Shown here one piece after another: positions 17,222 to 62,114 of a stretch of 64,000 bases of DNA. The notes under the pieces were generated by a model, which had not been told where the DNA came from, ran no database searches, and saw only the letters and a program-made list of their open reading frames with translations. This DNA is from Candidatus Kaiserbacteria bacterium (lineage in GTDB: Bacteria > Patescibacteriota > Minisyncoccia > Phycocordibacterales > UBA918): contig CP064968.1 of NCBI GenBank assembly GCA_016699245.1, positions 379,331-443,330 on the forward strand. Direction: 5' to 3'. The translations under genes were made by a program, and so were the position numbers. Each line of letters begins with the position of its first letter. Positions within the stretch are counted from its first letter, which is position 1.

Positions 17222-17770
17222 ATGAAAACCATTGACGAACAGAGCAAGGAGCGAGCAATTAAACTCTTTGAGAGCCAAGAACAGGCTATGTTCGAGGTGG
17301 GTACTACACGAGGTTTACAGCAGATACACGAATATCTTTTTAAAGGGCTGTATGATTTTGCGGGAAAGATTCGCACAAAAGATATAAGTAAGGGTGGATT
17401 TCGGTTTGCGTCTTGTCTGTATCTTGCCGATAGCCTTAAGGCAATTGATTCACTTAAAGAGCAGACATTCGAAGATATTGTCACTAAATATGTGGAAATG
17501 AATGTTGCTCATCCCTTCATGGAAGGCAATGGTCGGAGTCAGCGCATTTGGCTTGATTTGATTTTAAAGAAAAATTTGTGTCAATGCATTTATTGGCAAA
17601 AGATAGATAAGATGGACTATTTAAACGCCATGGAACGCAGTCCCGTAAACGCACTCGAAATCAGAGAACTTTTACGTAGCGCACTTACTTCAAAAGTGGA
17701 TGATCGTGACGTCTTCATGAAGGGTATCGAACAATCGTACTATTACGAAGAGCCCGATTTCTACAAATAA
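17222..17770 (+). CDS. Fic family protein (AMPylase-like)
   Basis: Fic motif [12 protein letters not shown] (HPFx[DE]GNGR). Confidence 0.85.
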
Positions 17771-20967: not shown

Positions 20968-21138
20968 TTATTCAGACTTGTTTTCTTCATGTTCTTTTGC
21001 GATTTTGGTATGCTCTTCTGCTGCCCTCTCATGTGTTTCGGCAGCATTCTGATGATCTTCTTCTGCTTGCTTCTCAGTGTTTTTCACCGTTTCATCTGCT
21101 TCTTTTGCGTCAACATCTTTTGTATCTATATCTGACAT
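20968..21138 (-). CDS. small acidic protein with His/Glu-rich A-E-x-H repeats (56 aa; not in the >=60 aa ORF track)
   Basis: MSDIDTKDVDAKEADETVKNTEKQAEEDHQNAAETHERAAEEHTKIAKEHEENKSE on the minus strand. The plus-strand ORFs here run through the terminator and are spurious. Confidence 0.35.
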   Translation of the reverse strand: MSDIDTKDVDAKEADETVKNTEKQAEEDHQNAAETHERAAEEHTKIAKEHEENKSE

Positions 21139-21482
21139 AATATTTTAAATTAGTGATGAATATGCGCATCGACCCGTCTCAGAGTGAGCCGTTTTAATCA
21201 GAAGTAAATTACAACAATGCAGATCAGATATTCTACGTTTAGCTATATAGATATCATGAGATACTCAACTTGACCGTGTGGAAGATTTGTAATAGGAGCA
21301 CATCATGCACGGCATGTATGCATACACCTCCAAATCAACATCTGAAAATACAGGTGCAGTCCAAGTACATCGGGTATTGCAATGCTGAAGAAAATCTATG
21401 AAGCACAATCTTTGGGATAGGTCTGAGCAAAACATCTCAGCAAAGACTAGAGAGTACACATGTAATAAACTAATCACAAAAT

Positions 21483-21821
21483 ATGATAAGCGAATCAAGT
21501 CGCCCACTGTATAGAGGGGCGCAAATAGTGTGGTACGCCTTCTCAGTGGTTGAAGGGCTCCTCATAATCCGGTTTATACTGAAACTGCTCAACGCAAATC
21601 CAGAAGCGCTCTTTACCAGTCTCATATATTCATTGTCGAATATATTTGTACTGCCCTTTCTGGCTGTGTTTAAAAATATGAGAGTAGAAACGAGCGTGTT
21701 TGAATGGACAACATTGCTCGCAATGCTCGTATATTGGATTCTCACGGTTGCCTTGATTCGATTATTCATTATGAGTAAATCAGTTTCTTCAATGGAAGCA
21801 GACCAAAAGTTAGTCGAGTAG
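21483..21821 (+). CDS. YggT-like small membrane protein
   Basis: Two or three TM helices with basic loops; weak resemblance to the YggT/Ycf19 family. Confidence 0.35.
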   Translation: MISESSRPLYRGAQIVWYAFSVVEGLLIIRFILKLLNANPEALFTSLIYSLSNIFVLPFLAVFKNMRVETSVFEWTTLLAMLVYWILTVALIRLFIMSKSVSSMEADQKLVE

Positions 21822-21875
21822 AGCAACACAAGTGACGGATCAAAAAAATAATTATTATTTTTAGAAAAAATTTAT

Positions 21876-22127
21876 ATGGAAATTATATTATGGGTGATAC
21901 TCGGAGCAGTTGCAGGATGGATTGGATCATTGATTATGAATACTGACGGACAACAAGGAGTCATGCTTAATATTGTTGTCGGTATTATTGGTGCAGTTCT
22001 TGGTGGCTACATAATGAATTTTTTTGGTGCAGGTGGCGTCACAGGATTTAATTTGTACAGCCTCTTAGTTGCCGTTGTTGGTGCAGTGGCCTTACTCGCT
22101 ATTGTTAAACTGGTACGAGCAAGTTAA
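21876..22127 (+). CDS. GlsB/YeaQ/YmgE family stress-response membrane protein
   Basis: ILGAVAGWIGSLIM...NIVVGIIGAVLGGYI family signature. Confidence 0.8.
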   Translation: MEIILWVILGAVAGWIGSLIMNTDGQQGVMLNIVVGIIGAVLGGYIMNFFGAGGVTGFNLYSLLVAVVGAVALLAIVKLVRAS

Positions 22128-22140
22128 ATGAATACACGTA

Positions 22141-22175
22141 AAACACCGTGACCATTGGTCACGGTGTTTTGTTTT
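22141..22175 (+). terminator. rho-independent terminator
   Basis: aaacaccgtgaccattggtcacggtgttttgttttt. Confidence 0.8.
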
Positions 22176-22223
22176 TCCGAGTAATGATTTGCTATACTTC
22201 TACAATACAATCACAATCTGCAT

Positions 22224-22472
22224 ATGGAATCAAAGTCTATTCAAAAGAATAATCCCCTCCACGGCATTACGCTTAAAACCGTCGTCGAAGAACTCGTATC
22301 TCACTATGGCTTTGAGACACTGAGTCAAAAAATTAAAATCAAATGCTTTACAGAGAAACCAAGTGTAAATTCAAGTCTCACGTTCCTTCGTAAGACCCCC
22401 TGGGCACGAGAAAAAGTGGAAAAGTACTACATCTGGACATTTTTCAAACGTGACGGCACACGGAAGGACTAG
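22224..22472 (+). CDS. DUF2132/VF530 family protein
   Basis: [33 protein letters not shown]...[18 protein letters not shown] is the conserved VF530 block. Confidence 0.7.
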
Positions 22473-22647
22473 CACGAGCATATGAAGATAGTTTGATGCG
22501 TACATTCTTTATTTTTATTACCCCCACAGTGTGAAGGTATATACCCCCTACTCATACCCTGTAATAATCACCTTTCCACAACGGCTTCTATTATAGACCG
22601 ATACTTAACATTGGTGGTTTTGTCACATTATTGAACGTATATTTATC

Positions 22648-23424
22648 ATGGAAAACAAGAAAAAAATTTTAGGAGCTATTGTTGTACTGGGAATATGTCT
22701 AATTATGGTTATTGTTGGTGTACTGTATACGAAGTCCCGCAACATTAATGAACCAACCAATGAAGTTTCTTATATTCAAGAAGTTAAACAGGAAAAACCT
22801 GTTGATATTGCGCTCGACTTCTATAACAAATGGCTTGATGCAGTTGTGTCCACTACGACAACCCCATATGCAACCGGCCTTGCGAGTGAAAAAATTCTGA
22901 GCGATGAACTACGTGCTGTGCTTATAGCAAGCGAACGTCGTTTAAATACAGAAATTGACCCTATCCTCTGCCAAACCACCACTCCTATGCGCGCAACAGG
23001 ACGAGTAGTATCTACAGGAGAGAATGAAGCCCGCATACTGATTATGGCAAAAGAAAAAGAACTCACTGCTCAATCCGTATTTACGCTAAAACGTATCGGT
23101 GACGGATGGTTCATTGATAGCGTCGCGTGTACTCCAGGCGAATTTGCCCCACTTCGAGAATTTAGTTTTGAAAAGGAAGGATATCTTCTCAAAAACCTCC
23201 CCGCCCCATTCGACCCACAAAATTGGCACATAGTCTTTATTGAAGATGGTGAGGAGGGACACGTGGTACCACTTTTCTTTGATACTAAGACTGTATGTCG
23301 TACCACCCCGAAAACTGACGCACCCTGTGTCCCTGACCAATTCATGAGTGGTACAAAGATTCATGTATACAGCCAGATGACCGAGCGTGGTGCTGAGGTG
23401 AAACGACTTGAATTTATTGAGTAA
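22648..23424 (+). CDS. membrane-anchored hypothetical protein
   Basis: N-terminal TM helix ILGAIVVLGICLIMVIVGVLY; no known domain. Confidence 0.45.
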   Translation: MENKKKILGAIVVLGICLIMVIVGVLYTKSRNINEPTNEVSYIQEVKQEKPVDIALDFYNKWLDAVVSTTTTPYATGLASEKILSDELRAVLIASERRLNTEIDPILCQTTTPMRATGRVVSTGENEARILIMAKEKELTAQSVFTLKRIGDGWFIDSVACTPGEFAPLREFSFEKEGYLLKNLPAPFDPQNWHIVFIEDGEEGHVVPLFFDTKTVCRTTPKTDAPCVPDQFMSGTKIHVYSQMTERGAEVKRLEFIE

Positions 23425-23473
23425 TAGTCAAAGCACACAGCGTTGTTAACAATATCATTAAGAACACACATAT

Positions 23474-23722
23474 ATGAGTATTTTATTATGGATTCTCTTC
23501 GGGGGTCTTGTGGGGTGGATTGCATCATTAATCATGGGTACTGATGGACAACAAGGAATTATTCTCAACATCGTTGTGGGTATTATTGGCTCCAGTATTG
23601 GTGGCTATATTATGCATGCGCTCGGCAAAGGTGGAGTGGGCGGGTTCACGGTTCGCAGTTTCGCTGTAGGGGTTATCGGTGCAGTAGTACTCATCGCCAT
23701 CTTTCAATTCATTCGCGGATAA
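23474..23722 (+). CDS. GlsB/YeaQ/YmgE family membrane protein (paralog of 21876)
   Basis: LFGGLVGWIASLIMGTDGQQGIILNIVVGIIGSSIGGYIM. Confidence 0.8.
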   Translation: MSILLWILFGGLVGWIASLIMGTDGQQGIILNIVVGIIGSSIGGYIMHALGKGGVGGFTVRSFAVGVIGAVVLIAIFQFIRG

Positions 23723-23725
23723 CAT

Positions 23726-24133
23726 ATGAAAAATATCATCACACAGATTTTTGTCACACTCGGCGCACTATTTCTTGTACTTCTGTGTATCAGTGTATAT
23801 TTCTTTATCGCTGATCCACTTAATATTAAGCCACTTATCTTTGGTGATGTGTCATCAGAGGCAAATGGAGCGAAGCAGGAAGCCCCTGCACAAGAAAGTA
23901 CCGACACGACCACAGAAGGAACACAACAGTCTACTGGCTTTACTCTCTCCGAGGCACAGAAGTCGGCGCTGACCTCTCTCGGCATCGACCCCGCCGCAGT
24001 TCCTTCAACAATTAGCGCTACGCAAGAGGCGTGTTTTGTAGAGGCACTCGGTGCTTCACGGGTATCAGAAATCAAAGCGGGTGCCGTACCAAATGCGATT
24101 GAACTCCTCAAAGCTAAGCCATGTATTAAGTAG
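23726..24133 (+). CDS. membrane-anchored hypothetical protein
   Basis: N-terminal TM helix then Thr/Gln-rich segment. Confidence 0.4.
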   Translation: MKNIITQIFVTLGALFLVLLCISVYFFIADPLNIKPLIFGDVSSEANGAKQEAPAQESTDTTTEGTQQSTGFTLSEAQKSALTSLGIDPAAVPSTISATQEACFVEALGASRVSEIKAGAVPNAIELLKAKPCIK

Positions 24134-24251
24134 GAGGAATAAAGTGTATCCCACAATGCCACATGTATCACATGTCGCTATGCGCAAATGATTATTTCTC
24201 TATACAGGTTTGCTGTATACTTACACTACATTACTTAATATATTAAATCAT

Positions 24252-24527
24252 ATGCATCAAGGAAATTGGGTGTGCAGTGGGTGTGGAGGAGCAATCACCG
24301 AGTTACCATTTGAACCACGAAACACCACGGGGCTTTTGTGTCGGGATTGCCATCAAAACAAAAAAGGTGATAGCCCACGTCCGCAAAAACAGGAGGGTGA
24401 GCGACCACGTTTTTCGGGCGATTGGAAGTGTAGTGGCTGCGATACTGCAATTACATCCCTACCCTTTGAACCACGCGATACGTCCAATCTAAAGTGTATC
24501 GACTGTTTCAAAAAGTCAAAATCGTAA
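24252..24527 (+). CDS. small protein with two tandem C4 zinc ribbons (CxxC-x17-CxxC, DksA/TraR-like spacing)
   Basis: WVCSGCGGAITELPFEPRNTTGLLCRDC and WKCSGCDTAITSLPFEPRDTSNLKCIDC; start codon uncertain (TTG at 24210 or ATG at 24252). Confidence 0.5.
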   Translation: MHQGNWVCSGCGGAITELPFEPRNTTGLLCRDCHQNKKGDSPRPQKQEGERPRFSGDWKCSGCDTAITSLPFEPRDTSNLKCIDCFKKSKS

Positions 24528-24549
24528 TTTAGGAGTATTCATTGAATCA

Positions 24550-24597
24550 AAAAAACAGACTGCCTAGGGATACATCCCTAGGCAGTCTGTTTTTTAT
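24550..24597. terminator. bidirectional rho-independent terminator
   Basis: aaaaacagactgcctagggatacatccctaggcagtctgtttttt. Confidence 0.85.
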
Positions 24598-24972
24598 TTA
24601 GGCCCTCATCGCCATGCGAACTTGATTCACAACCTCTTTGGGAGTCAGATTTGCTTTAATGATATATTCTTCACTTCCCTGTTCAACTGCGTGCACAATA
24701 TTTTCTGGATCAGTCATATTGGTAAGGTACACCACATTTGCATGTTTGCCCCATGCATCTCTGCGAATAATGCTCATCGCCTCATGACCATTCATAACAG
24801 GCATCATAATATCCATAAGAATTGCATTTGGGTGATGCAGGAGAGCGAGCTTCACTCCCTCGCTTCCATCTTCTGCAGTGAGTACCTTGATTCCCGCAAG
24901 TGTAAAGGCATCTGAATACATTCCTCGAATATTTTTGTCATCCTCGACAATAAGTACGGTTGGTTTTTCCAT
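24598..24972 (-). CDS. single-domain response regulator (CheY-like receiver)
   Basis: VLIVEDD...phospho-acceptor Asp in ILMDIMMP...K at KANL; no output domain; no adjacent histidine kinase. Confidence 0.85.
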   Translation of the reverse strand: MEKPTVLIVEDDKNIRGMYSDAFTLAGIKVLTAEDGSEGVKLALLHHPNAILMDIMMPVMNGHEAMSIIRRDAWGKHANVVYLTNMTDPENIVHAVEQGSEEYIIKANLTPKEVVNQVRMAMRA

Positions 24973-25171
24973 GTGGTACTAGCGTATCACATTTTATTCA
25001 GAATATTTAGTACGCTCCGTGATGTATCTTCAAATTACACTATGTATTCATGGATTTTTTTCCCAATATCGCACTCAATCTTACTTCTACTCATACTGAT
25101 AGTTTACGCGCAGAAAGAAACACCGCTCGCGATAAATTGCCATAATAATATTTTCGTGTTATAGTTTTCAA

Positions 25172-25813
25172 ATGAATAACTTTAAAGGAGTTGACGGGAA
25201 GAAACGAGGGAACGATTTTGGCGGTAAGGCACGATTTGGAGACAAGCGCGGAAGTAGTTTTGGTGGTGGAGAACGACGAAGAAGTGGTGGCGTGGGTGGC
25301 GGTGACAGAGGTGGACGTGAACGCTCATCTGAACTTTTTGCGGCAACCTGTAGTGCATGCAAGAAGTCTTGTGAAGTCCCCTTCCGTCCGAGTGGTGACA
25401 AGCCTGTATTTTGCAGCGCGTGTTTCAATATGAAAAGTCGCGACGAAGAACGTGGCAATACACCGCGTGAATATGGGAATCGCAGCGATGCGCGGCCACA
25501 CAAATCTGCTTCATACGAAAAGCCATATCAAGAACATCGACCATCATACGAGGCCGCTCCGCAGGTAGCAAAGAATACTGATTTAATTGACATGAAGCGC
25601 CAACTCACGACTATCGAATCACGACTTAACCGCATCCTCGACCTCTTAAACCCACCCACACCGCCTACAAAGCCAGCACATGTGGCTAAGGCAGCCCATA
25701 TAAGCGATGATGATGACGCACCAATTAAGAAAGTCCGAAAACCAAAGACGGTAAAAGGCAAGATTCCAGCGAAAAAGAAGACTGCGAAAAAAACGACCAG
25801 GAAGAAAGCGTAG
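25172..25813 (+). CDS. Gly/Arg-rich protein with one C4 zinc ribbon and a Lys-rich basic tail (putative nucleic-acid binder)
   Basis: RGG-like N-terminus; CSACKKSCEVPFRPSGDKPVFCSAC (same CxxC-x17-CxxC/PFxP pattern as 24252 ORF); C-terminal KKVRKPKTVKGKIPAKKKTAKKTTRKKA. Confidence 0.5.
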   Translation: MNNFKGVDGKKRGNDFGGKARFGDKRGSSFGGGERRRSGGVGGGDRGGRERSSELFAATCSACKKSCEVPFRPSGDKPVFCSACFNMKSRDEERGNTPREYGNRSDARPHKSASYEKPYQEHRPSYEAAPQVAKNTDLIDMKRQLTTIESRLNRILDLLNPPTPPTKPAHVAKAAHISDDDDAPIKKVRKPKTVKGKIPAKKKTAKKTTRKKA

Positions 25814-25825
25814 TAATACAAACCA

Positions 25826-25858
25826 AAACCCCCGTATTTTTGCGGGGGTTTTGTTTTG
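25826..25858 (+). terminator. rho-independent terminator
   Basis: aaaacccccgtatttttgcgggggttttgttttg. Confidence 0.85.
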
Positions 25859-25925
25859 TATAACTACCTCGGTACTCTAATTATGTAGGATTTCGAAAAT
25901 TATTTGAGTGTTATCGTTCAAAACC

Positions 25926-25960
25926 ATGATTAACAAGAGGCCTCTCACAAGGGAGGCCTC
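25926..25960 (+). terminator. second rho-independent terminator about 70 nt after the first; may end a short transcript
   Basis: agaggcctctcacaagggaggcctcttttttc. Confidence 0.6.
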
Positions 25961-26150
25961 TTTTTTCTTATTTTCAGTTGACCCTGCGGCCGCATACCTG
26001 ATGAATAGCTACGCCTTCAAGCATATGCTCGTTTGTCTCACTGAGTAACTAGCCCTCACTGGGTAGAAAGAACTATGCGTAGAATGTAAGTATAGATCAC
26101 CAGGAGAACATGTGCTAGTAATGTGCATTATATAGGCGTACTATGGGTAG

Positions 26151-26726
26151 ATGCATAAAAACATCAGTATAGGAGTACTCGTTATCGCTCTCATCGGCTT
26201 TTTCATTTGGTCAAACACAAGTATTGCGCCCACAGAGGACGTGTCTACGTCGAAAGAAAAAGCAGACGATACAACTTCACACGTTAAAAATGAGCCTAAA
26301 GCAACCGCTTCTCAAACTCCATCTACACCTTCAGCAAAAGCTGATGCAGCTCACACACTCGTCCTCGCACACACAGGACTCACCAAAGTTTCAAGTGATG
26401 TGTTTACCAAAACAGACCTTCTCACGCTCGACCTCTCAAACAACAATCTCACGGGGTCACTCCCTGCGGAAGTACGTCTCCTCACTTCGCTCCGCACACT
26501 CAACCTGAGTTACAACAAATTCACCGGTGTTCCTGCGGAAATAGGGCAACTGAAAGACCTTGAGTATCTCGACCTTGCACATAATGAACTCACGGGACTT
26601 CCCCATGAATTAGGTAATTTATCAAACCTCAAAGAACTTATCCTCACTGGCAACAATTACTCACAGGCTGATTTGGATGTTATACAAAAATCACTTCCTT
26701 CAACTACAAAAATAATTACTGAATAG
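26151..26726 (+). CDS. membrane-anchored leucine-rich-repeat (LRR) protein
   Basis: LTLDLSNNNLTGSLPAEVRLLTSLRTLNLSYNKFTGVPAEIGQLKDLEYLDLAHNELTGLPHELGNLSNLKEL: five or six LxxLxLxxN repeats. Confidence 0.75.
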   Translation: MHKNISIGVLVIALIGFFIWSNTSIAPTEDVSTSKEKADDTTSHVKNEPKATASQTPSTPSAKADAAHTLVLAHTGLTKVSSDVFTKTDLLTLDLSNNNLTGSLPAEVRLLTSLRTLNLSYNKFTGVPAEIGQLKDLEYLDLAHNELTGLPHELGNLSNLKELILTGNNYSQADLDVIQKSLPSTTKIITE

Positions 26727-26764
26727 CACACAAAGTGCTCTATCCCGTACGGTATACTGATGAT

Positions 26765-27286
26765 ATGAAAGAAATCAATGCACATGCGTTCAAAGAAGCA
26801 CTCGAAAACGAAAAACGTAATGATGCAGTCGATTTTATTAATGTTTGTACTTCAGCTGAGTTCAAAGAAAAGTATATTGAAGGAGTGCGCAGTGTCCCTC
26901 TTGATACTCTTCAGAATCACCTCCCTGAATTTAAAGATAAAAAAACTATCTACATTCACTGTCGAAGTGGAGCACGTGCTCGTCATGCAATCGACATTCT
27001 CGAGAATCTGGGTGTAGGAGCAGAACTCATCAACCTAGAGGGCGGTATCCTAGCTTGGGAGAAAGCAGGTTTCCCTACAAAGGTATTTACACATCGGCTC
27101 CCAATCATGCGACAAATGCTCCTCACTGCAGGACTTTTGGTGACACTCGGAGTCATTCTCGCACTCACCGTAAATCCAAAGTTTGTATTTCTCGCGCTTG
27201 TAGTTGGATGCGGACAAATGTTTGCCGGTATCACCGGCTGGTGCGGACTTTCACACCTTCTCGAGAAAATGCCCTGGAATAAATAG
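26765..27286 (+). CDS. rhodanese-domain protein fused to C-terminal DUF2892/YgaP-like transmembrane domain
   Basis: Active-site loop HCRSGARA; C-terminal two TM helices with GITGWCGL. Confidence 0.7.
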   Translation: MKEINAHAFKEALENEKRNDAVDFINVCTSAEFKEKYIEGVRSVPLDTLQNHLPEFKDKKTIYIHCRSGARARHAIDILENLGVGAELINLEGGILAWEKAGFPTKVFTHRLPIMRQMLLTAGLLVTLGVILALTVNPKFVFLALVVGCGQMFAGITGWCGLSHLLEKMPWNK

Positions 27287-27462
27287 AGTCTATCTACTAA
27301 CCCCATCTACTTCGTGGTTTTCGTCCTTCTAACATTCACCGTATAATAAAATACGACTCATGTTTTCACTCCTCGACGCCTCGTATCTGAGGTCATTGAA
27401 CAGACTCTAAAATTACAAGAAATCACTAATAACCTACGCACGCAGGACTTTTTTGTACGTAG

Positions 27463-29916
27463 TTACTTCTGTGCAAAATCTGATGCAGAAAATTCAATTA
27501 TATCACCGGGTTTTAATCCTCCTTCGAGGATTTTGAAGGCAACGCGCTCTTCGATTAAATCTTGAATCGCGCGACGCATGGGGCGGGCGCCAAACTCAGG
27601 GTCATAGCCTTCTTTCATGAGCACATTGAGGAGCACGTCATTCACGACGAGGGTAAATCCTTGCTCACTGATGCGCTTTTGCAAATCGACTAGCATCATT
27701 TCTGCAATAGAGCGCTGCTCACCTTCATTAAGCACCTCAAAGAGCACTATAGCGTCGAAGCGGTTGAGTAATTCGGGTTTATAGGTGCGCCTCTCGATAA
27801 TGGCATCGATGATTGCATCTTTTTCATCATCCGGATGCTTTCCTTCTTTTACATAGTTCCAAATAAGGTCACTCCCCGCATTTGAGGTGGCAATAATAAT
27901 CGTGTTCCGTGCATTTATTTTATCACCTCGTGCATCAGTAAAGACTCCTTCATCAAACACTTGAAGGAAGAGGTCATGTACCGCCACCGAAGACTTTTCA
28001 AATTCATCAAGAAGAAGCACACAGTATGGGTGTTCGCGAAGTGCAGAGGGAAGCATACCGACAGCATCAACGGTACCCAAAAGGCGGGTGAGACTATTTT
28101 CATCACTAAACTCCGACATATCGAAGCGCACCATGTTACGTTCATCACCAAAAAATGTGTGTGCAAGCGCTTTCGCGGTTTCGGTCTTCCCAACTCCTGT
28201 TGAGCCAAGGAAAAGGAATGTGCCTATGGGCTTTTCTTTGCTCTGAATACCCGCACGCGCACGACGCATCGCACTTGCAATCACACTGATGGCACGCTCC
28301 TGCCCCACTACGCGCTTATGGAGCACATCCTCGAGATGCATAAGTATGTCGCGCTCACCAGTGCTCACGGGGCCTACTGGGATACCCGTTTTCTGACTTA
28401 CACAAAGATCAACAAAATCAGGGTCGATAATGACTTTTTTGTCTTGTCCCGCGCTTGCTGCCACTTCCGCAAGGAGACTCACGGCTTTGTCGGGCATCAC
28501 TCCTTCAATGATGTACTGATCAGCACTTTCTGCGATGCGCTCTAGTGCTGGGTAGGTGAAGTACACATGGTGCTTGTGTTCTTGTATCCACGAAGCCTCC
28601 TCGAGCACTCGCACGGTGCTTGTATTATCCGGCACCTCAATAAGAATTGGCTCAAAATACTGAAGTAACTGTTGATTGGTTTCGAGTGATACATGATAAC
28701 TACGTGGATCTACCGTCCCCACTATTTGTACATTAGAGGAAGTAAGGAATCTGCCCAAAAGATCGGCTGCATTCGCCTCGAGCGCAGACACACTCGAAAG
28801 AAATGAACTGAAATTTTCAATCACCATAATGATGTTGCCCGCGCGCTCTGCCTGAATCATAAGTTTCAAGAATGCTGCTTCAAACTCTCCCTTAGTACTA
28901 TATGAAGCAACAAACACATCAGTATCAAAGACCTCAATACGCTTCGCAGTGAGTGATGCAATAGAATGTCCTTCGCGCATGCGTCGTCCCAACTCAATGA
29001 GGATGTCCATTTTCCCTACCCCTGGTTCACCTATGAGCATCACATTAGCAGACTTGGAGCGCGTGAGCGTTGTCTCAATTTTTTCAATCACTTCATTCGC
29101 ATAGGCAGTATTGCCGAGAAAAACAGAAAACGCTGATGACGTATTGATGTCCCTTTGATATCGCTTCAAACTCATTGCAATGCCATACGAGAACTCACGA
29201 CCAATACCTGTTACGGTGCCCAGATTGTCACGACTCCACCAACGATTCTTTCGTTTATACTCCGCACGGACACGCCACACCCATTCATTCGCACCTTTAA
29301 AAAGGGATGGGGTAACTGCATGCTTAAAGAGAAATGTCTTAAAAGCAGTGTCTTTTTCTAAAAGAAACTCACCCACGTCCTGAAGGGAAATGAACTTCCC
29401 TCTCTGTATGGTGAGTGTATCAGCCGGAAGTTTTGGTCTATCTCCTTGTAGGAAAGTTTGCACTGCTTCAGAATCCACTCCCGAGCGAATCATAATCTCG
29501 TGTCCATAAGTCGACATTAAAAATCCCTGCGTGAGGTCGTGCTCATAGGAGAGACACACCGCTGCAGTTTCAAGAGTGATACCTTCTCCATCAACCAAGT
29601 CCTCCCCATACACCGTACTTAATCCTCTGAAGTACAATGTGTTATAGAAAAAGGTACACAGAACAAGCACTCCATAAAAACTTGCTATGATACAAAACAT
29701 TCCCACTAAATACCGTGCATCCCCACTAAAACTACTCATTGTAAAGGACTGGTGTACAAAAAAGTCACGGAGTACGAATCCCACAATGGCGATGCCGAGG
29801 AGCGACAAGATTGCTGATAAAAACTTTAACACAAATGAACGCGACTTCTTCGAAAGAAACACATCAAGTGAGATTGCAGGTGTGTACCGACGTATTTCTG
29901 AAGAAAGTGTACTCAT
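27463..29916 (-). CDS. ClpA/ClpC-like two-domain AAA+ ATPase with N-terminal two-TM membrane anchor replacing the Clp-N domain; D1 Walker B degenerate
   Basis: D1 Walker A LIGEPGVGKMD but VIENF in place of DE. D2 Walker A GSTGVGKTETAKALA, Walker B LLLDEFEKS, sensor ATSNAG, ClpB-D2-small GARPMRRAIQ. N-terminal 90 aa hydrophobic. Confidence 0.7.
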   Translation of the reverse strand: MSTLSSEIRRYTPAISLDVFLSKKSRSFVLKFLSAILSLLGIAIVGFVLRDFFVHQSFTMSSFSGDARYLVGMFCIIASFYGVLVLCTFFYNTLYFRGLSTVYGEDLVDGEGITLETAAVCLSYEHDLTQGFLMSTYGHEIMIRSGVDSEAVQTFLQGDRPKLPADTLTIQRGKFISLQDVGEFLLEKDTAFKTFLFKHAVTPSLFKGANEWVWRVRAEYKRKNRWWSRDNLGTVTGIGREFSYGIAMSLKRYQRDINTSSAFSVFLGNTAYANEVIEKIETTLTRSKSANVMLIGEPGVGKMDILIELGRRMREGHSIASLTAKRIEVFDTDVFVASYSTKGEFEAAFLKLMIQAERAGNIIMVIENFSSFLSSVSALEANAADLLGRFLTSSNVQIVGTVDPRSYHVSLETNQQLLQYFEPILIEVPDNTSTVRVLEEASWIQEHKHHVYFTYPALERIAESADQYIIEGVMPDKAVSLLAEVAASAGQDKKVIIDPDFVDLCVSQKTGIPVGPVSTGERDILMHLEDVLHKRVVGQERAISVIASAMRRARAGIQSKEKPIGTFLFLGSTGVGKTETAKALAHTFFGDERNMVRFDMSEFSDENSLTRLLGTVDAVGMLPSALREHPYCVLLLDEFEKSSVAVHDLFLQVFDEGVFTDARGDKINARNTIIIATSNAGSDLIWNYVKEGKHPDDEKDAIIDAIIERRTYKPELLNRFDAIVLFEVLNEGEQRSIAEMMLVDLQKRISEQGFTLVVNDVLLNVLMKEGYDPEFGARPMRRAIQDLIEERVAFKILEGGLKPGDIIEFSASDFAQK

Positions 29917-43220: not shown

Positions 43221-43272
43221 TAGTTCCTGCTTGCTCTGTTGCTCTCCGAGGAACAGAGTGTACTATAAGAGT

Positions 43273-44847
43273 ATGGCTACTCTCATCACTGCGCAGGAAA
43301 TTATTGATGTACTTACCATTACCTCTCCCGATGATGTAGCGCTTATTCGTCGTGCATACGACTATGCTGCAAAGGCACATGAAGGGCGCACACGCTATTC
43401 GGGGGATTCGTATCTCACACACCTTGCTTCGGTAGCAAAAATGCTTGCCGAAATAGGTATGGGTGCACCCACGGTTGCTGCAGGCCTTCTTCACGACAGT
43501 ATCGAGGATACAAACGTTACCCCTGAAGAACTGAAGGCCGAATTTGGCGAAGAAATCTTTTTTCTCGTGCAGGGTGTCACCAAACTTGGCTCCGTACGCT
43601 ACTACGGGAGCGACCGTCACAATGAAAGTCTTCGCAAACTTTTTGTTGCCACGAGTCAAGACATACGTGTCCTCATCATCAAGTTGCTCGACCGTCTCCA
43701 CAACATGCAGACCTTGCAGTATGTACCGCAAGAAAAGCAATTGCGTATTGCACGTGAGACTTTGGAAATTTATGTTCCCGTCACTCACCGCCTCGGTATG
43801 GGACGCATTCGTAAAGAACTCGAGGACCTCGCGTTTCCCTATGTATATCCCGAAGAACACAAGCGTGTCCTTGACGTTACCAAACACATCGCAAAGAGCA
43901 GTGAAGTCGATTTAGAACGTGCGCGCAAAGCACTCCAGAAGCGTCTCGCCGAAAGTGGCATACGTGATTTTCATACATCATTTCGTTCAAAAGGTCTCTA
44001 TAGCCTTTTCCAAAAATTAAAGCGTCGTGAATGGGATATGGACCGTGTATACGACTATCTTGCTATTCGTGTGGTGGTCCCCACTATTGAAGAGTGTTAT
44101 CAGGTTCTGGGTATTGTCCATGAAGTCTGGCGTCCGCTTCCACAGCGCGTAAAGGATTATATTGCGTTCCCGAAGCCAAATGGTTATAAGTCACTTCACA
44201 CCACTGTCATCACCCCCAACCGCACTATTGTCGAAGTGCAAATTCGCACCGAAGCAATGCATCGTGAAGCAGAATACGGTATCGCCTCACACATCATTTA
44301 CAAAAATCGCCAATTGGGGCAAAAGGAGTCTGGTGGTACCGCTGCATGGTTTGCATCACTTGTTCCCGCTCTCTTTAAGCCATTTATATGGAAAAGTAAG
44401 GCGGCGCCTGATGCACAAAAAGAAGTATTGACTGACAAGGATCATAAACTCAAGATCCCAAGGTGGATTCAGGAAATTGCCGACACTCACAAGACAAGCG
44501 ATAGCGAACGCGAGTTTTTTGATGGTCACCGTGATGACTTTTTCTCGTATCGAATCTTCGTCTTCACACCCGAAGGTGATGTGATTGACTTACCCGTAGG
44601 TGCGTCTCCAATAGACTTTGCGTACGCCATTCATTCCGATATTGGCGACCATGTTGCGGGAGCAAAAGTTAACAACAAATTAACCGAACTCAGTACGGAA
44701 CTTAATAATGGAGACATCGTTGAAATAATCACCGGCAAAGCAAACAAGCCCACGCGTAAGTGGCTCAATTATTCAAAAACATCGCTTGCTCGTCGCAAGA
44801 TACGCGCAGCACTTGCCGAACAAAACCCTATAGTGAAAAGTTCTTGA
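43273..44847 (+). CDS. RelA/SpoT-family (p)ppGpp synthetase/hydrolase, short form ending after the TGS domain
   Basis: HD hydrolase motif HDSIEDT, synthetase domain RVVVPTIEECY...YKSLHTTV, TGS FVFTPEGDVIDLPVGASPIDFAYAIHSDIG; no ACT/helical C-terminus. Confidence 0.85.
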   Translation: MATLITAQEIIDVLTITSPDDVALIRRAYDYAAKAHEGRTRYSGDSYLTHLASVAKMLAEIGMGAPTVAAGLLHDSIEDTNVTPEELKAEFGEEIFFLVQGVTKLGSVRYYGSDRHNESLRKLFVATSQDIRVLIIKLLDRLHNMQTLQYVPQEKQLRIARETLEIYVPVTHRLGMGRIRKELEDLAFPYVYPEEHKRVLDVTKHIAKSSEVDLERARKALQKRLAESGIRDFHTSFRSKGLYSLFQKLKRREWDMDRVYDYLAIRVVVPTIEECYQVLGIVHEVWRPLPQRVKDYIAFPKPNGYKSLHTTVITPNRTIVEVQIRTEAMHREAEYGIASHIIYKNRQLGQKESGGTAAWFASLVPALFKPFIWKSKAAPDAQKEVLTDKDHKLKIPRWIQEIADTHKTSDSEREFFDGHRDDFFSYRIFVFTPEGDVIDLPVGASPIDFAYAIHSDIGDHVAGAKVNNKLTELSTELNNGDIVEIITGKANKPTRKWLNYSKTSLARRKIRAALAEQNPIVKSS

Positions 44848-47481: not shown

Positions 47482-47709
47482 ATGAAAAATATTATTCAAT
47501 TTCAAATCACAGAAGAAGATGGATACTATATTGCCGAAGGTGTAAATGTCGCGATTGTGACAGACGCTCCTACGCTTGACGAACTTGCTAAAAATATTAA
47601 AGACGCCGTTGCGCTTTACTTTGAAAATGAGGACTATTCGACTCTTGGATTTGGGAGCGCTCCGTCGGTACTCGCCAACTTTGAAATTTCTGCACTGACG
47701 TATGCCTAA
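47482..47709 (+). CDS. hicB: HicB-family antitoxin
   Basis: DGYYIAEGVNVAIVTDAPTLDELAKNIKDAVALYFE. Confidence 0.7.
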   Translation: MKNIIQFQITEEDGYYIAEGVNVAIVTDAPTLDELAKNIKDAVALYFENEDYSTLGFGSAPSVLANFEISALTYA

Positions 47710-47944
47710 ACTAAAACGTCTTTCTCAAAAGGATGTTATTTCTATTCTCTTGACTCAAGGTTTTGAGTTGTCTGGACAAACGGGAAGTCATATTAAATTA
47801 AAGCGTTTTTCCGCATATGGTACAGAAGTGCTTATAGTCCCAAATCATAAGGAAATTAAACTGGGTACGCTCAAAAAAATATTCAATCAGGCGAGTAGAT
47901 ACATTCCGCAAGACATACTGAGGAAGGAATTTTATTCCGAATAA
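47702..47944 (+). CDS. hicA: HicA-family toxin
   Basis: MPKLKRLSQKDVISILLTQGFELSGQTGSHIKLKR...LIVPNHKEIKLGTLKKIFNQAS; overlaps hicB by 8 nt. Confidence 0.75.
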   Translation: MPKLKRLSQKDVISILLTQGFELSGQTGSHIKLKRFSAYGTEVLIVPNHKEIKLGTLKKIFNQASRYIPQDILRKEFYSE

Positions 47945-53126: not shown

Positions 53127-54005
53127 TTAAATTTTATTTATGCTATAGATTCTTCCAGGTCCCGCTTTATAGGATGGGCTAAAACTTGAATCACTTACCC
53201 AAGAAAATGTTTTATTCGATGAACTGTTTGAAATTGTTTTTGTACATCCTGCATTCATGCAAATGCCCGTATGAGATCGTGAACCGTCAGTCACAATAAC
53301 AATATCCCCAGCTTTCGCAGCTGATTGATCAACCAATGTTCCCCTACCTCCTGCAAGTGCTTGCTCCATTGACTTCACACTATTACCATCAATGGGACTT
53401 ATGCCTGCATCTTCTAGTACTTTGTTTACAGCCCATGCGCATGCAAGTGAGCCACCACCAGGACCTCCTGCCGTTGAAAAACCTTGTGCCCCGAGTGCAG
53501 CAGCAGCAATTGATCCTGCACTTCCTCCACCCGGATTCGTCATACCACCCGGACCTGTATTTGTCGTAGCACCACCACTTGGTCCTGTCATCGTGGCGGT
53601 CATCGTTGGATTATCTACACACTGTACTGTACCCCACACCTCAATACCTTTGCCATCACTCATGACGGTCATAAGTATCGTGTTCACAATAAGCCATGCA
53701 CCGAGGAGGATGAAGAAACCTATGATAGAGTTCGACATCATTTCTTTTCCTTCTGAGACTTTTCCAGTGTTCCCTGCGGACATCACCATTTTCATGCCAC
53801 CAAAGGCGAACATGAGGGCAACGATAGTTGCAGATGCGCCTATAAACCAAGTCATCAATCCCTGCCCCATAGCAACAAAGTCACAGACGCGACACATTGG
53901 TTCGGGAGGACCACCACCACAGGGGACTAGGCCTGCAGCGTACGTGACAGAGGCGGTGAGAAGGAAGAGGCTTGTGATGAATAGTATGCGTTGGTTGGTG
54001 GTCAT
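53127..54005 (-). CDS. secreted two-TM pilin-like N-terminal module fused to a C-terminal CHAP/NlpC-P60-like cysteine peptidase/amidase domain
   Basis: Signal peptide plus two hydrophobic helices (VirB2/TrbC-like topology). C-terminus has nucleophile Cys in SLACAWAVN and downstream GDIVIV...SHTGIC His. N-terminal 160 aa about 97% identical to the 54605 paralog. Confidence 0.55.
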   Translation of the reverse strand: MTTNQRILFITSLFLLTASVTYAAGLVPCGGGPPEPMCRVCDFVAMGQGLMTWFIGASATIVALMFAFGGMKMVMSAGNTGKVSEGKEMMSNSIIGFFILLGAWLIVNTILMTVMSDGKGIEVWGTVQCVDNPTMTATMTGPSGGATTNTGPGGMTNPGGGSAGSIAAAALGAQGFSTAGGPGGGSLACAWAVNKVLEDAGISPIDGNSVKSMEQALAGGRGTLVDQSAAKAGDIVIVTDGSRSHTGICMNAGCTKTISNSSSNKTFSWVSDSSFSPSYKAGPGRIYSINKI

Positions 54006-54604: not shown

Positions 54605-55441
54605 TTATGGTCCATACTTTGTAATACACGCTTGAGCTTTTGCATTACAATTGGCACAGGTCCAACTACTATATCCGCTCTGTGACACCAGCTTTTTTGC
54701 TACCTCAGCGTTGCACGATGCATTGGTACAAGACGAAAAACTACTGCAACTCGTGCCTTTTGCAGCACTTTCCCAAGTTGATTTAATGACTTGAAATGTG
54801 CCACATGCACTACCGCTTTTATTTTGCGCTGTAGGATTACCAGAACTCTCTGTCATCGCGATACACGACATGACATTTGCTTGTGAAGGAGTAAAGCCTG
54901 CGGCTGTAAGCGCATTCACACTGCACGCCGGATTAAGGCTCCCACACTGTATACCACTTCCTCCCCCCGGATTCGTCATACCACCCGGACCTGTATTTGT
55001 CGTAGCACCACCACTTGGCCCCGTCATCGTGGCGGTCATCGTAGGATTATCAACACACTGTACCGTACCCCACACCTCAACACCTTTACCATCACTCATG
55101 ACGGTCATAAGTATCGTATTCACAATAAGCCATGCACCGAGGAGGATGAAGAAACCTATGATAGAGTTCGACATCATTTCTTTTCCTTCTGAGACTTTTC
55201 CAGTGTTCCCTGCGGACATCACCATCTTCATACCCCCAAAGGCGAACATGAGGGCAACGATACTTGCAGACGCACCAATAAACCAAGTCATCAATCCCTG
55301 CCCCATAGCAACAAAGTCACAGACGCGACACATTGATTCGGGAGGACCACCACCACAGGGGACAAGCCCTGCAGCGTACGTGACAGAGGCGGTGAGAAGG
55401 AAGAGTGCTGTGGTGAATAGTATGCGGTGGTTGGTGGTCAT
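54605..55441 (-). CDS. paralog of 53127: same pilin-like N-terminal module fused to a C-terminal lytic-transglycosylase (SLT)-like domain
   Basis: CIAMTESSGNPTAQNKSGSACGTFQV resembles the SLT catalytic E-S...GLMQ block; several Cys pairs; N-terminal 160 aa near-identical to 53127 gene. Confidence 0.55.
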   Translation of the reverse strand: MTTNHRILFTTALFLLTASVTYAAGLVPCGGGPPESMCRVCDFVAMGQGLMTWFIGASASIVALMFAFGGMKMVMSAGNTGKVSEGKEMMSNSIIGFFILLGAWLIVNTILMTVMSDGKGVEVWGTVQCVDNPTMTATMTGPSGGATTNTGPGGMTNPGGGSGIQCGSLNPACSVNALTAAGFTPSQANVMSCIAMTESSGNPTAQNKSGSACGTFQVIKSTWESAAKGTSCSSFSSCTNASCNAEVAKKLVSQSGYSSWTCANCNAKAQACITKYGP

Positions 55442-61380: not shown

Positions 61381-61650
61381 CTACTTATACACATCTTTTC
61401 TATGCTTGATACTTAAGATGGTCAGTATTGTAATATTCCCATTTTCATCAATAGTAAAAATAGCTCGATAATCACCAATCCGATACCGGTATTTACCTGA
61501 CAATGTACCTTGCAGTGCTTTGGCACGGACGAGCGGGTCATCCTGTAAAACATTATCGGCAATCTTTAGGACGATACGTTTTGAAAGTGCAGGACTGAGT
61601 TTTTTTAACTGACGTAAAGCATCATCAGAATAAATAATCGTCACGTGCAT
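61381..61650 (-). CDS. RelE/ParE-family toxin
   Basis: GKYRYRIGDYRAIFTIDENGNITILTILSIKHRKDVY. Confidence 0.75.
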   Translation of the reverse strand: MHVTIIYSDDALRQLKKLSPALSKRIVLKIADNVLQDDPLVRAKALQGTLSGKYRYRIGDYRAIFTIDENGNITILTILSIKHRKDVYK

Positions 61651-61653
61651 AGA

Positions 61654-61902
61654 TTACGCAATACCTAAAACCTTCATCACTTCTTCATGTGTATGATAGT
61701 TACCTCGAGCAACATCTGCCTCGGCTTTCGCTATATCTGCGACAAATGAATCAAGATATTCATCCTCGGCAAATGCCTTAATCTCGAATAAAGGTTTGTT
61801 TCGATTCATCACTATATACCGAGTATCACTCTTTTGAGCACGCTTAGCATAATCAGAGATGTTTTGACGAAAGTCTTTCACTCCAATAAATTTAGTATTC
61901 AT
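61654..61902 (-). CDS. Phd/YefM-family antitoxin
   Basis: MNTKFIGVKDFRQNISDYAKRAQ...RYIVMNRNKPLFEI; start at MNTKF so the upstream palindrome lies in the promoter. Confidence 0.7.
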   Translation of the reverse strand: MNTKFIGVKDFRQNISDYAKRAQKSDTRYIVMNRNKPLFEIKAFAEDEYLDSFVADIAKAEADVARGNYHTHEEVMKVLGIA

Positions 61903-61904
61903 GA

Positions 61905-61936
61905 CAGAAGTGTACACTTTGGTGTACACTTCTGTC
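61905..61936. promoter_or_regulatory. perfect palindrome agaagtgtacac-tttg-gtgtacacttct immediately upstream of the phd/relE operon (candidate autoregulatory operator)
   Basis: 12 bp arms; each arm contains the self-complementary gtgtacac. Confidence 0.5.
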
Positions 61937-62114
61937 AATCACCTATTCAGAGATAAGGTGTTTGCATGTTTCAACCGCTTTATTTTCCTTCCGAGATGGA
62001 GAAATGGGAACACTTGCTGTGAATTTAAGGACAACTGTTGACTTTGTTTAATTGTTGGAGTTTACTTCTTCCATCTTGCCTACATCGGCATGTGTTCTTC
62101 AAAGAGAGGTAGTC

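Follow-up and report, generated by a model that had tools for sequence, protein, structure and literature searches.

In a 64,000-nucleotide (64-kb) window of the genome of a Candidatus Kaiserbacteria bacterium (contig CP064968.1), two small zinc-finger genes, here called A and C, lie on either side of a gene B that encodes a stand-alone receiver domain. A and C are two members of a known domain family, and that they neighbour the receiver gene is a mere accident of how genes are ordered locally. The finding is an ordinary one, because the finger motif already has curated Pfam and NCBIfam models and the receiver link reflects only local gene order. Gene B is part of the locus and stands outside the zinc-finger family. 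A preliminary description, made from the DNA letters alone, had pointed out the three open reading frames (ORFs) and a four-cysteine (C4) finger occurring twice in A and once in C; all of these are present, and a six-frame scan revealed only these three motifs of the kind in the window. The genes and fingers are as follows, in window coordinates.

24252 to 24527, plus strand: gene A, 91 amino acids (aa), tandem two-finger protein; GenBank QQR65314.1 (IPH92_01895, 'hypothetical protein')
24273 to 24350, plus strand: finger 1 of A, CxxC-x18-CxxC, CSGCGGAITELPFEPRNTTGLLCRDC
24429 to 24506, plus strand: finger 2 of A, CxxC-x18-CxxC, CSGCDTAITSLPFEPRDTSNLKCIDC
24598 to 24972, minus strand: gene B, 124 aa, stand-alone receiver domain (response regulator)
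25172 to 25813, plus strand: gene C, 213 aa; GenBank QQR65316.1 (IPH92_01905, 'hypothetical protein')
25349 to 25423, plus strand: finger of C, CxxC-x17-CxxC, CSACKKSCEVPFRPSGDKPVFCSAC; cysteines C60, C63, C67, C81 and C84

The GenBank identities of A and C were obtained by exact-sequence look-up. Both proteins matched the Pfam model PF23477 (zf_Tbcl_2, "probable treble clef zinc finger") with 56.3 bits for A (E=2.5e-15) and 52.2 bits for C (E=4.9e-14), and the NCBIfam model TIGR04272 (cxxc_cxxc_Mbark, "CxxC-x17-CxxC domain-containing protein") with 57.4 bits (E=8.5e-16) and 49.8 bits (E=2e-13), respectively. All four scores exceed the curated cut-offs of 27 bits for PF23477 and 36 bits for TIGR04272. 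These profile matches are far beyond chance and assign the fingers of A and C to PF23477/TIGR04272, a family that is catalogued but not functionally characterised; JGI already names homologues of both proteins by the NCBIfam label. All finger cysteines are invariant in the A- and C-family alignments. Compared with the family models, A and C show no difference in kind: the four cysteines, the PFxP core and the predicted hairpin and helix are all shared. A deviates in its x18 rather than x17 spacing.

The preliminary description had assigned the x17 spacing to both proteins, which is correct for C but not for A, where both fingers have x18. It had also placed four residues before and six after the [VL]PFxP core, whereas there are in fact five to six before and seven after. 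Furthermore, the motif is not unusual, as had been proposed, because it belongs to the curated PF23477/TIGR04272 family: a finger-only profile, searched against 1.84 billion representatives, retrieved at least 6120 clusters (50% identity) at E≤1e-3. The best 150 representatives were all 85–340 aa long, with 2–5 fingers each. No fused function-revealing domain was found among the 149 best representatives, just cross-matches to other Cys-rich models, namely LIM (10), the CapR homology domain (9), KDM6_GATAL (4) and HC2 (PF07382; 1), of which the CapR match was judged an artefact of the cysteine pattern after look-up. A defence or phage origin of A or C was discarded, as PADLOC and PHROGs gave no match.

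AlphaFold (AF2) modelling of the fingers, which had been proposed as a check, was run on alignments of the two families. Each finger was modelled as a beta-hairpin with a short helix behind it, the helix beginning at the second CxxC; predicted local distance difference test (pLDDT) values were 71–88 over the finger blocks of A and C. A treble-clef-like fold is thus predicted for these fingers. GATA and LIM treble-clef fingers share the CxxC-x17/18-CxxC spacing and the hairpin-and-helix class with A and C; in contrast, their Pfam models remained below threshold, and the W-R-R and basic-tail signature of GATA is absent. A kinship with DksA/TraR or YacG found no match in the hidden Markov model (HMM) search: zf-dskA_traR (PF01258), YacG (PF03884) and GATA (PF00320) gave no Pfam match at E≤1 for A or C. 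Foldseek compared the models with YacG (4tma_J) at E=5.6 and a probability of 0.06, and structural comparison with solved folds yielded nothing significant, all scores lying in the noise typical of small treble-clef fingers.

Profile searches of the PDB with A, C and the finger-only profile reached E≥0.012 at best, with marginal GATA, LIM, eL43 and PRDM9 matches. The best PDB sequence matches, none of them significant, were MED-1, a GATA factor (E=0.02), and two LIM proteins, FHL2 and TRIP6 (E 0.02–0.05). Homology to GATA was also probed with hhalign, but the resulting probability of 36%, obtained against hand-typed GATA finger sequences, is no more than a lead and was rejected as evidence. 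Finger 2 of A begins with GDWKC, which we take to resemble RanBP2-type fingers, with only a weak trace in the PDB profiles. No similarity to the Hsp33 or DnaJ zinc domains was detected in the Pfam, PDB profile or structure searches. An identity of the family with aS21, an archaeal ribosomal zinc protein reported in the ribosome of Methanosarcina acetivorans (PMC12605026), was likewise considered and is without support, because no ribosomal chain matched except weakly eL43 and eS26.

Although they share the predicted Zn(Cys)4 treble-clef finger of PF23477/TIGR04272, and only this feature, A and C are assigned by their alignments to separate orthologous families, both of them widely found among Patescibacteria. 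For A, 816 homologues of 88–96 aa with 65–83% identity were found, all starting with MHQGNW. Therefore, the ATG at 24252 was taken as the start of A rather than the upstream TTG at 24210. A 213-aa "homologue" called in one relative proved to be an over-extended ORF. In the family alignment, 33 of the 91 columns are invariant. The AF2 model of A (mean pLDDT 77) contains two independent modules (strands 2–7 and 14–18 with helix 31–37; strands 54–59 and 66–70 with helix 83–90), separated by a disordered linker. The fingers of A are near-neutral, with isoelectric points (pI) of 6.7 and 7.9, and lack the fifth cysteine of the C type.

A is also the slowest-evolving gene of its block. Compared with the related loci L081, L084 and L096, it retains 89–91% identity, against 72% for the neighbouring ClpB-like chaperone, 64% for rhodanese and 58% for C. 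A conservation above that of the ClpB-like chaperone suggests that A may have a partner in the core machinery.

Protein C has a more elaborate architecture, with three elements beside its finger:

25172 to 25336, plus strand: N-terminal RGG/FGG-like disordered region of C, residues 1–55
25565 to 25651, plus strand: conserved amphipathic helix of C, residues 132–160, KRQLxxIESRLNRILDLL
25652 to 25810, plus strand: Lys-rich, histone-H1-like disordered tail of C, residues 161–213

The Gly/Arg-rich N-terminus and the Lys-rich tail recognized earlier are both evident: residues 1–55 contain 17 Gly and 14 Lys+Arg, with M1, N3, F4, F16 and F22 almost invariant, and residues 161–213 contain 17 Lys+Arg among 53. 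In the AF2 model (mean pLDDT 60), the N-terminal 55 and C-terminal 45 residues are disordered, and the finger is ordered at residues 56–96 (strands 56–59 and 66–69, helix 82–96; pLDDT block means 76–88 over residues 51–90). The C-type finger carries a fifth invariant cysteine (C67), and its basic residues K65, R72 and K77 are conserved.

The preliminary description had seen no coiled coil in these proteins. For C this is incorrect, because the helix confidently predicted at residues ~132–159 has a regular heptad, with L138, M141, L145, I148, L152, I155 and L159 at the a/d positions. The pLDDT block means over residues 131–160 are 78, 96 and 90, weak profile matches to GCN4-type coiled coils were obtained (E 0.08–1), and the helix, with the consensus KRQLxxIESRLNRILDLLNPP, ranks second in conservation among the elements of the C family. 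It is presumed from the model to be an oligomerisation coiled coil.

The C family comprises 233 matches of ~200 aa which keep the whole architecture: a Gly/Arg/Phe-rich N-terminus (MNNFK..FGGKPKFGG..) is followed by the finger, then by a low-complexity linker and the helix, and finally by the Lys-rich tail. Proteins built on this plan, carrying one finger or two, are found throughout Patescibacteria (80 species-level C loci). Elsewhere the parts vary: Methanosarcinales variants have only the RGG region and the finger; DPANN variants (L048, L050, L053) have the RGG region, finger and helix, with an acidic Asp/Glu tail replacing the Lys tail; and Omnitrophota/Planctomycetes variants either place the helix N-terminal to the finger (L063, L074, L075) or are minimal forms of 54–65 aa. 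Conservation of the RGG-like N-tail extends from Methanosarcinales and DPANN archaea to Omnitrophota. As the architectures vary in this way across phyla, the invariant core is the Gly/Arg tail plus the finger, and the Lys tail is a Patescibacterial addition.

Gene B encodes a canonical receiver (PF00072, E=3.5e-20, 72.6 bits) that is 100% identical to an NCBI entry named 'response regulator [Candidatus Kaiserbacteria bacterium]'. The phospho-acceptor pocket, read from the translation, consists of D11, D12, D54, T84 and K106; since all five catalytic positions are present, B should be phosphorylatable. The earlier view of B as an orphan CheY-like receiver holds as far as it is a single-domain protein, the sole receiver in the window, with no histidine kinase ORF (HisKA/HATPase_c) detectable there; no kinase adjoins B in the loci L081–86, L096, L098 and L099 either. 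An assignment to the chemotaxis protein CheY is unsupported, as NCBIfam CheY_Halo scored 49.9 bits against a cut-off of 200, and no che genes occur among the neighbours examined.

The comparison of gene context covered 80 C loci at species level, 42 A loci (each 6 kb or longer) and 2 distant B loci. In a narrow clade only, the three genes belong to a conserved block VF530-A-B-ydjM-C-rhodanese-ClpB-like. The order VF530-A-B-ydjM-C is kept where C is 83%, 65% and 58% identical, as are rhodanese and ClpB-like, and it is retained in L081–86 and L096 together with the flanking genes; within this clade B is 81–91% and A 89–91% identical. At similar divergence, VF530 and B still lie 2 kb upstream of C in the locus L095, from which A is missing; L094 has kept neither, and the linkage is lost in L087/88. 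At 49% identity, no trace of the block is left. In the larger sample, a receiver within 2 kb of C was found in 0 of 80 loci and a second finger ORF in 2; among the A loci, only 2 of 42 had a nearby receiver and 3 another finger ORF; and neither of the two B orthologues (67–69% identity) had a finger gene or a kinase beside it.

Because VF530, rhodanese and ClpB-like are kept in the same loci, the linkage of A, B and C is explained as general synteny, and their co-occurrence does not appear to exceed it. By this comparison, the grouping is the inherited local gene order of one Kaiserbacteria-level clade rather than a conserved module, and a functional link of A or C to the receiver is not supported. 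The preliminary description had allowed that the grouping might be regulatory and had named, as findings that would speak against it, a lack of synteny in relatives and a match of the fingers to a well-characterised family. Synteny is indeed confined to close relatives, while the matched family, as stated above, is catalogued only. As a peculiarity of this genome alone, a three-gene insertion at 22648–24133 lies between VF530 and A; it includes the second (23474–23722) of two paralogous 82–83-aa transglycosylase-associated (GlsB/YeaQ-type) membrane proteins, the first of which lies at 21876–22127.

The transcription signals of the locus point in the same direction as its comparative genomics:

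24550 to 24595: intrinsic terminator acting in both directions, between A and B, which converge; 21-bp stem with an A-run on one side and a T-run on the other
25050 to 25135 (within 24973–25171), plus strand: ydjM remnant, from alignment with L081 and L084
25137 to 25165, plus strand: sigma-70-like promoter of C with extended -10, TTGCCA-17-TGtTATAGT, consensus match only
25824 to 25853, plus strand: intrinsic terminator after C, its own terminator

A, B and C are separate transcription units, A and B being convergent and B and C divergent, with their own terminators; A and C are thus independent monocistronic genes. The hairpin between A and B has a predicted energy of -35.9 kcal/mol (z=-8.0 vs shuffles). 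Since the promoter-like site of C ends 6 nt before its ATG, the mRNA of C is possibly leaderless. The promoter stretch is kept in the relatives L081 and L084, there inside the 3′ end of ydjM. This inner-membrane-protein gene (PF04307 YdjM) lies intact between B and C in relatives (e.g., L081 4517–5041; also L084 and L085), where it encodes 168–174 aa (145 aa in L096). In the window, a ~420-bp internal deletion between two CATGGA(T/C)AT repeats and a 1-nt frameshift have left only its ends; B and C adjoin here because the gene that separates them in relatives has been reduced to this remnant. Downstream of C, a further strong terminator-like hairpin lies at 25935–25962, ~80 nt past the C terminator, and no convincing ORF is present in 25854–25962, which may hold a small RNA or a remnant. 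Rfam, run on 21000–27500, gave sub-threshold matches only, on the terminator hairpins.

Outside the window's clade, A and C have different neighbours. A usually ends a same-strand string prfB-ftsE-ftsX-pyrG-A (L089, L093, L102 and 16 metagenome loci); upstream of A in the 42 loci, pyrG occurs 19 times (11 directly at -1), ftsX 18, ftsE 17 and prfB 10 times. C has no single constant partner gene, and genes of RNA metabolism and translation recur near it. Counted within four genes of C in the 80 loci, with identities confirmed by NCBIfam, these are:

ABC-F ATPase: 14 of 80 loci
cold-shock protein (Csp): 5 of 80 loci
YihA/YsxC ribosome-biogenesis GTPase: 5 of 80 loci, four directly downstream (+1)
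CshA-like DEAD-box helicase: 4 of 80 loci
EpmA: 4 of 80 loci
beta-CASP RNase: 3 of 80 loci
any of these six: 29 of 80 loci

Because the counts come without a genome-wide background, they are only suggestive of an RNA link for C.

The biochemical information used here on the domain comes from archaea. In the literature collection searched, no paper naming PF23477, TIGR04272 or their model names was found, and the sole paper found to treat the CxxC-x17-CxxC domain concerns Methanosarcina mazei, where eight paralogues were detected at highest confidence in proteomics (PMC12704099). Two of them, A00184 and A01980, were purified, with a heparin column as one step, and bound zinc as measured by ICP-MS (PMC12704099). 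Zinc binding of A and C themselves is predicted from these members. A00184 and A01980 resemble C in the domain, in their N-terminus (MAFNDRNF... vs MNNFK...) and in a basic C-terminus, and a 90-aa RGG-and-finger protein at the Methanosarcinales locus L076 is 50% identical to residues 6–85 of C. However, the M. mazei proteins are shorter than 100 aa, have one finger, lack the coiled-coil helix and the Lys-rich tail, and come as eight paralogues.

Combined, a putative nucleic-acid-binding or chaperone role is the most plausible one for the finger proteins, and A and C probably bind nucleic acid, as judged from their composition and architecture. Each finger would fold around one zinc ion into a beta-hairpin and a short helix. 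The finger of C, with its conserved basic residues K65, R72 and K77, would be assisted by the Gly/Arg/Phe-rich N-tail and the Lys-rich C-tail, which may supply non-specific affinity for polyanions, and the heptad helix (132–159) would oligomerise the protein, so that the oligomer presents several fingers and tails and acts on nucleic acids as a multivalent binder, chaperone or compactor. As substrates of C, RNA or ribosome-associated targets are favoured, at a little under an even chance, over nucleoid DNA, which seems rather less likely; this leaning reflects the RGG-like core, the varying charge of the tail and the translation and RNA genes in the neighbourhood. A is more likely a bivalent adaptor: its two fingers, near-neutral, very highly conserved and joined by a flexible linker, would recognise a specific surface, of RNA or protein, that is conserved in the core machinery. 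B would take its signal from a kinase encoded elsewhere, with no specific relation to A or C. Taken as a whole, this explanation, i.e., independent finger genes with C as a multivalent binder, A as an adaptor and an unrelated B, has in our estimate an even chance of being correct.

Several points weigh against it. The fingers of A are not basic (pI 6.7 and 7.9), and nucleic-acid binding of the family members is predicted only. Lys/Ala-rich bacterial tails mostly belong to DNA-binding proteins. The neighbour counts of C, besides having no genome-wide background, ignore shared ancestry. Finally, because the block persists in at least four species-level lineages, a clade-specific functional link between A, B and C is conceivable.

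Owing to the H1-like tail of C, the main rival is binding of nucleoid DNA, in which C, and perhaps A, would be a nucleoid-associated, histone-like protein: the coiled coil would oligomerise it, and the finger and the H1-like Lys/Ala tail would bind and compact DNA, much as MucR/Ros or H-NS-like silencers or Hc1/Hc2 do. The tail of C resembles the H1-like Lys-rich tails of Hc1/Hc2, HupB and AlgP, and its AKK-type repeats are very marked in relatives such as L071; however, C itself does not match HC2 (PF07382), which is matched by 1 of the 149 relatives. GATA DNA-binding fingers have the same C4 spacing, and MED-1 was among the marginal PDB matches (E=0.02), but the Pfam GATA model gave no match and the hhalign probability was only 36%. 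The purification of M. mazei members over heparin is also consistent with DNA binding, as is the VF530 DNA-binding protein encoded within the conserved block. On the other hand, RGG-type tails are typical of RNA binders, and the recurring neighbours of C are RNA and translation genes rather than genes of DNA metabolism. As the DPANN tails are acidic and many homologues are tailless, the Lys tail is not the conserved functional core. Altogether, we regard this histone-like role as possible, though unlikely.

It is improbable that the zinc centre serves as a redox or zinc-availability switch, or as an Hsp33/DnaJ-like chaperone finger, acting in stress protection and not in nucleic-acid binding. 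The extra invariant cysteine C67 of C-type fingers, the oxidised cysteine forms of M. mazei members in top-down proteomics (PMC12704099) and the nearby ClpB-like AAA+ and rhodanese genes would fit such a role. However, no search returned similarity to the zinc domains of Hsp33 or DnaJ, such a role would leave the coiled coil and the RGG and Lys tails unexplained, and the linkage to ClpB-like and rhodanese is clade-specific.

Also improbable is a DksA/TraR-like or YacG-like role, in which A or C would bind and modulate RNA polymerase through its secondary channel, or gyrase. The x17 spacing of C is that of DksA, and the strong conservation of A agrees with a protein partner that is itself conserved. 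In UniProt, one of the M. mazei members bears the label of an RNA polymerase subunit (PMC12704099). Nevertheless, PF01258 and PF03884 gave no match at E≤1, all structural scores were within noise, and the likeness to DksA/TraR is confined to the C4 ligands and the spacing of C. DksA/TraR proteins carry an N-terminal coiled-coil hairpin with an acidic tip before the finger, whereas A has no long helix and C has a single 28-residue helix C-terminal to its finger. We therefore consider this role most doubtful.

Least credible is a regulatory module of the phosphorylated receiver and the finger proteins, with control running in either direction: the adjacency in the window, the order A-B-(ydjM)-C in four species-level lineages (window, L081–83, L084–86, L096) and the conservation of A and B in the clade would favour it, but it is largely refuted by the comparative data, since the flanking genes are equally kept, the linkage breaks in L094 and L087/88 and A is gone in L095, the partners are absent in 80 of 80 C, 40 of 42 A and 2 of 2 distant B loci, the convergent or divergent genes have terminators of their own, and the unrelated ydjM normally lies between B and C.

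A bolder form of the multivalent-binder explanation, which we consider rather unlikely, is that PF23477/TIGR04272 represents the prokaryotic counterpart of eukaryotic RGG-zinc-finger RNA binders. The layout of C, with its Gly/Arg tail, C4 finger and basic tail, is analogous to that of FUS/EWS/TAF15-type proteins; this is a resemblance only, as the finger type and spacing differ and homology was not detected. The family would then provide a core, abundant, multivalent RNA- or ribosome-associated factor common to lineages with reduced genomes (Patescibacteria, DPANN archaea), Methanosarcina, Omnitrophota and Planctomycetes, with C-type members oligomerising by their coiled coil, perhaps into ribonucleoprotein assemblies, and A acting as a dedicated adaptor. 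Because A usually ends the prfB-ftsE-ftsX-pyrG string, it might be the adaptor of a translation or cell-division gene set.

Elsewhere in the window, two tandem paralogues on the minus strand (53127–54005 and 54605–55441) have nearly identical N-termini matching T4SS_pilin; the fusion partner is a CHAP domain in one and an SLT/lysozyme-like domain in the other. The window also holds two toxin-antitoxin pairs of type II, DUF1902(HicB-like)/HicA at 47482–47944 and Phd/ParE at 61381–61938, a Fic/DOC-family protein is encoded at 17222–17770, and this reduced genome keeps a long RelA/SpoT homologue (43231–44847; HD_4, RelA_SpoT and TGS).

The interest of these results lies in the finger family and not in the locus. 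The family comprises thousands of clusters and is abundant in Methanosarcina proteomes, and it is very widespread in Patescibacteria and DPANN, lineages with few regulators and many unknown core proteins. The partner of A, once identified, would annotate a recurrent 'hypothetical protein' across much of the microbial dark matter.

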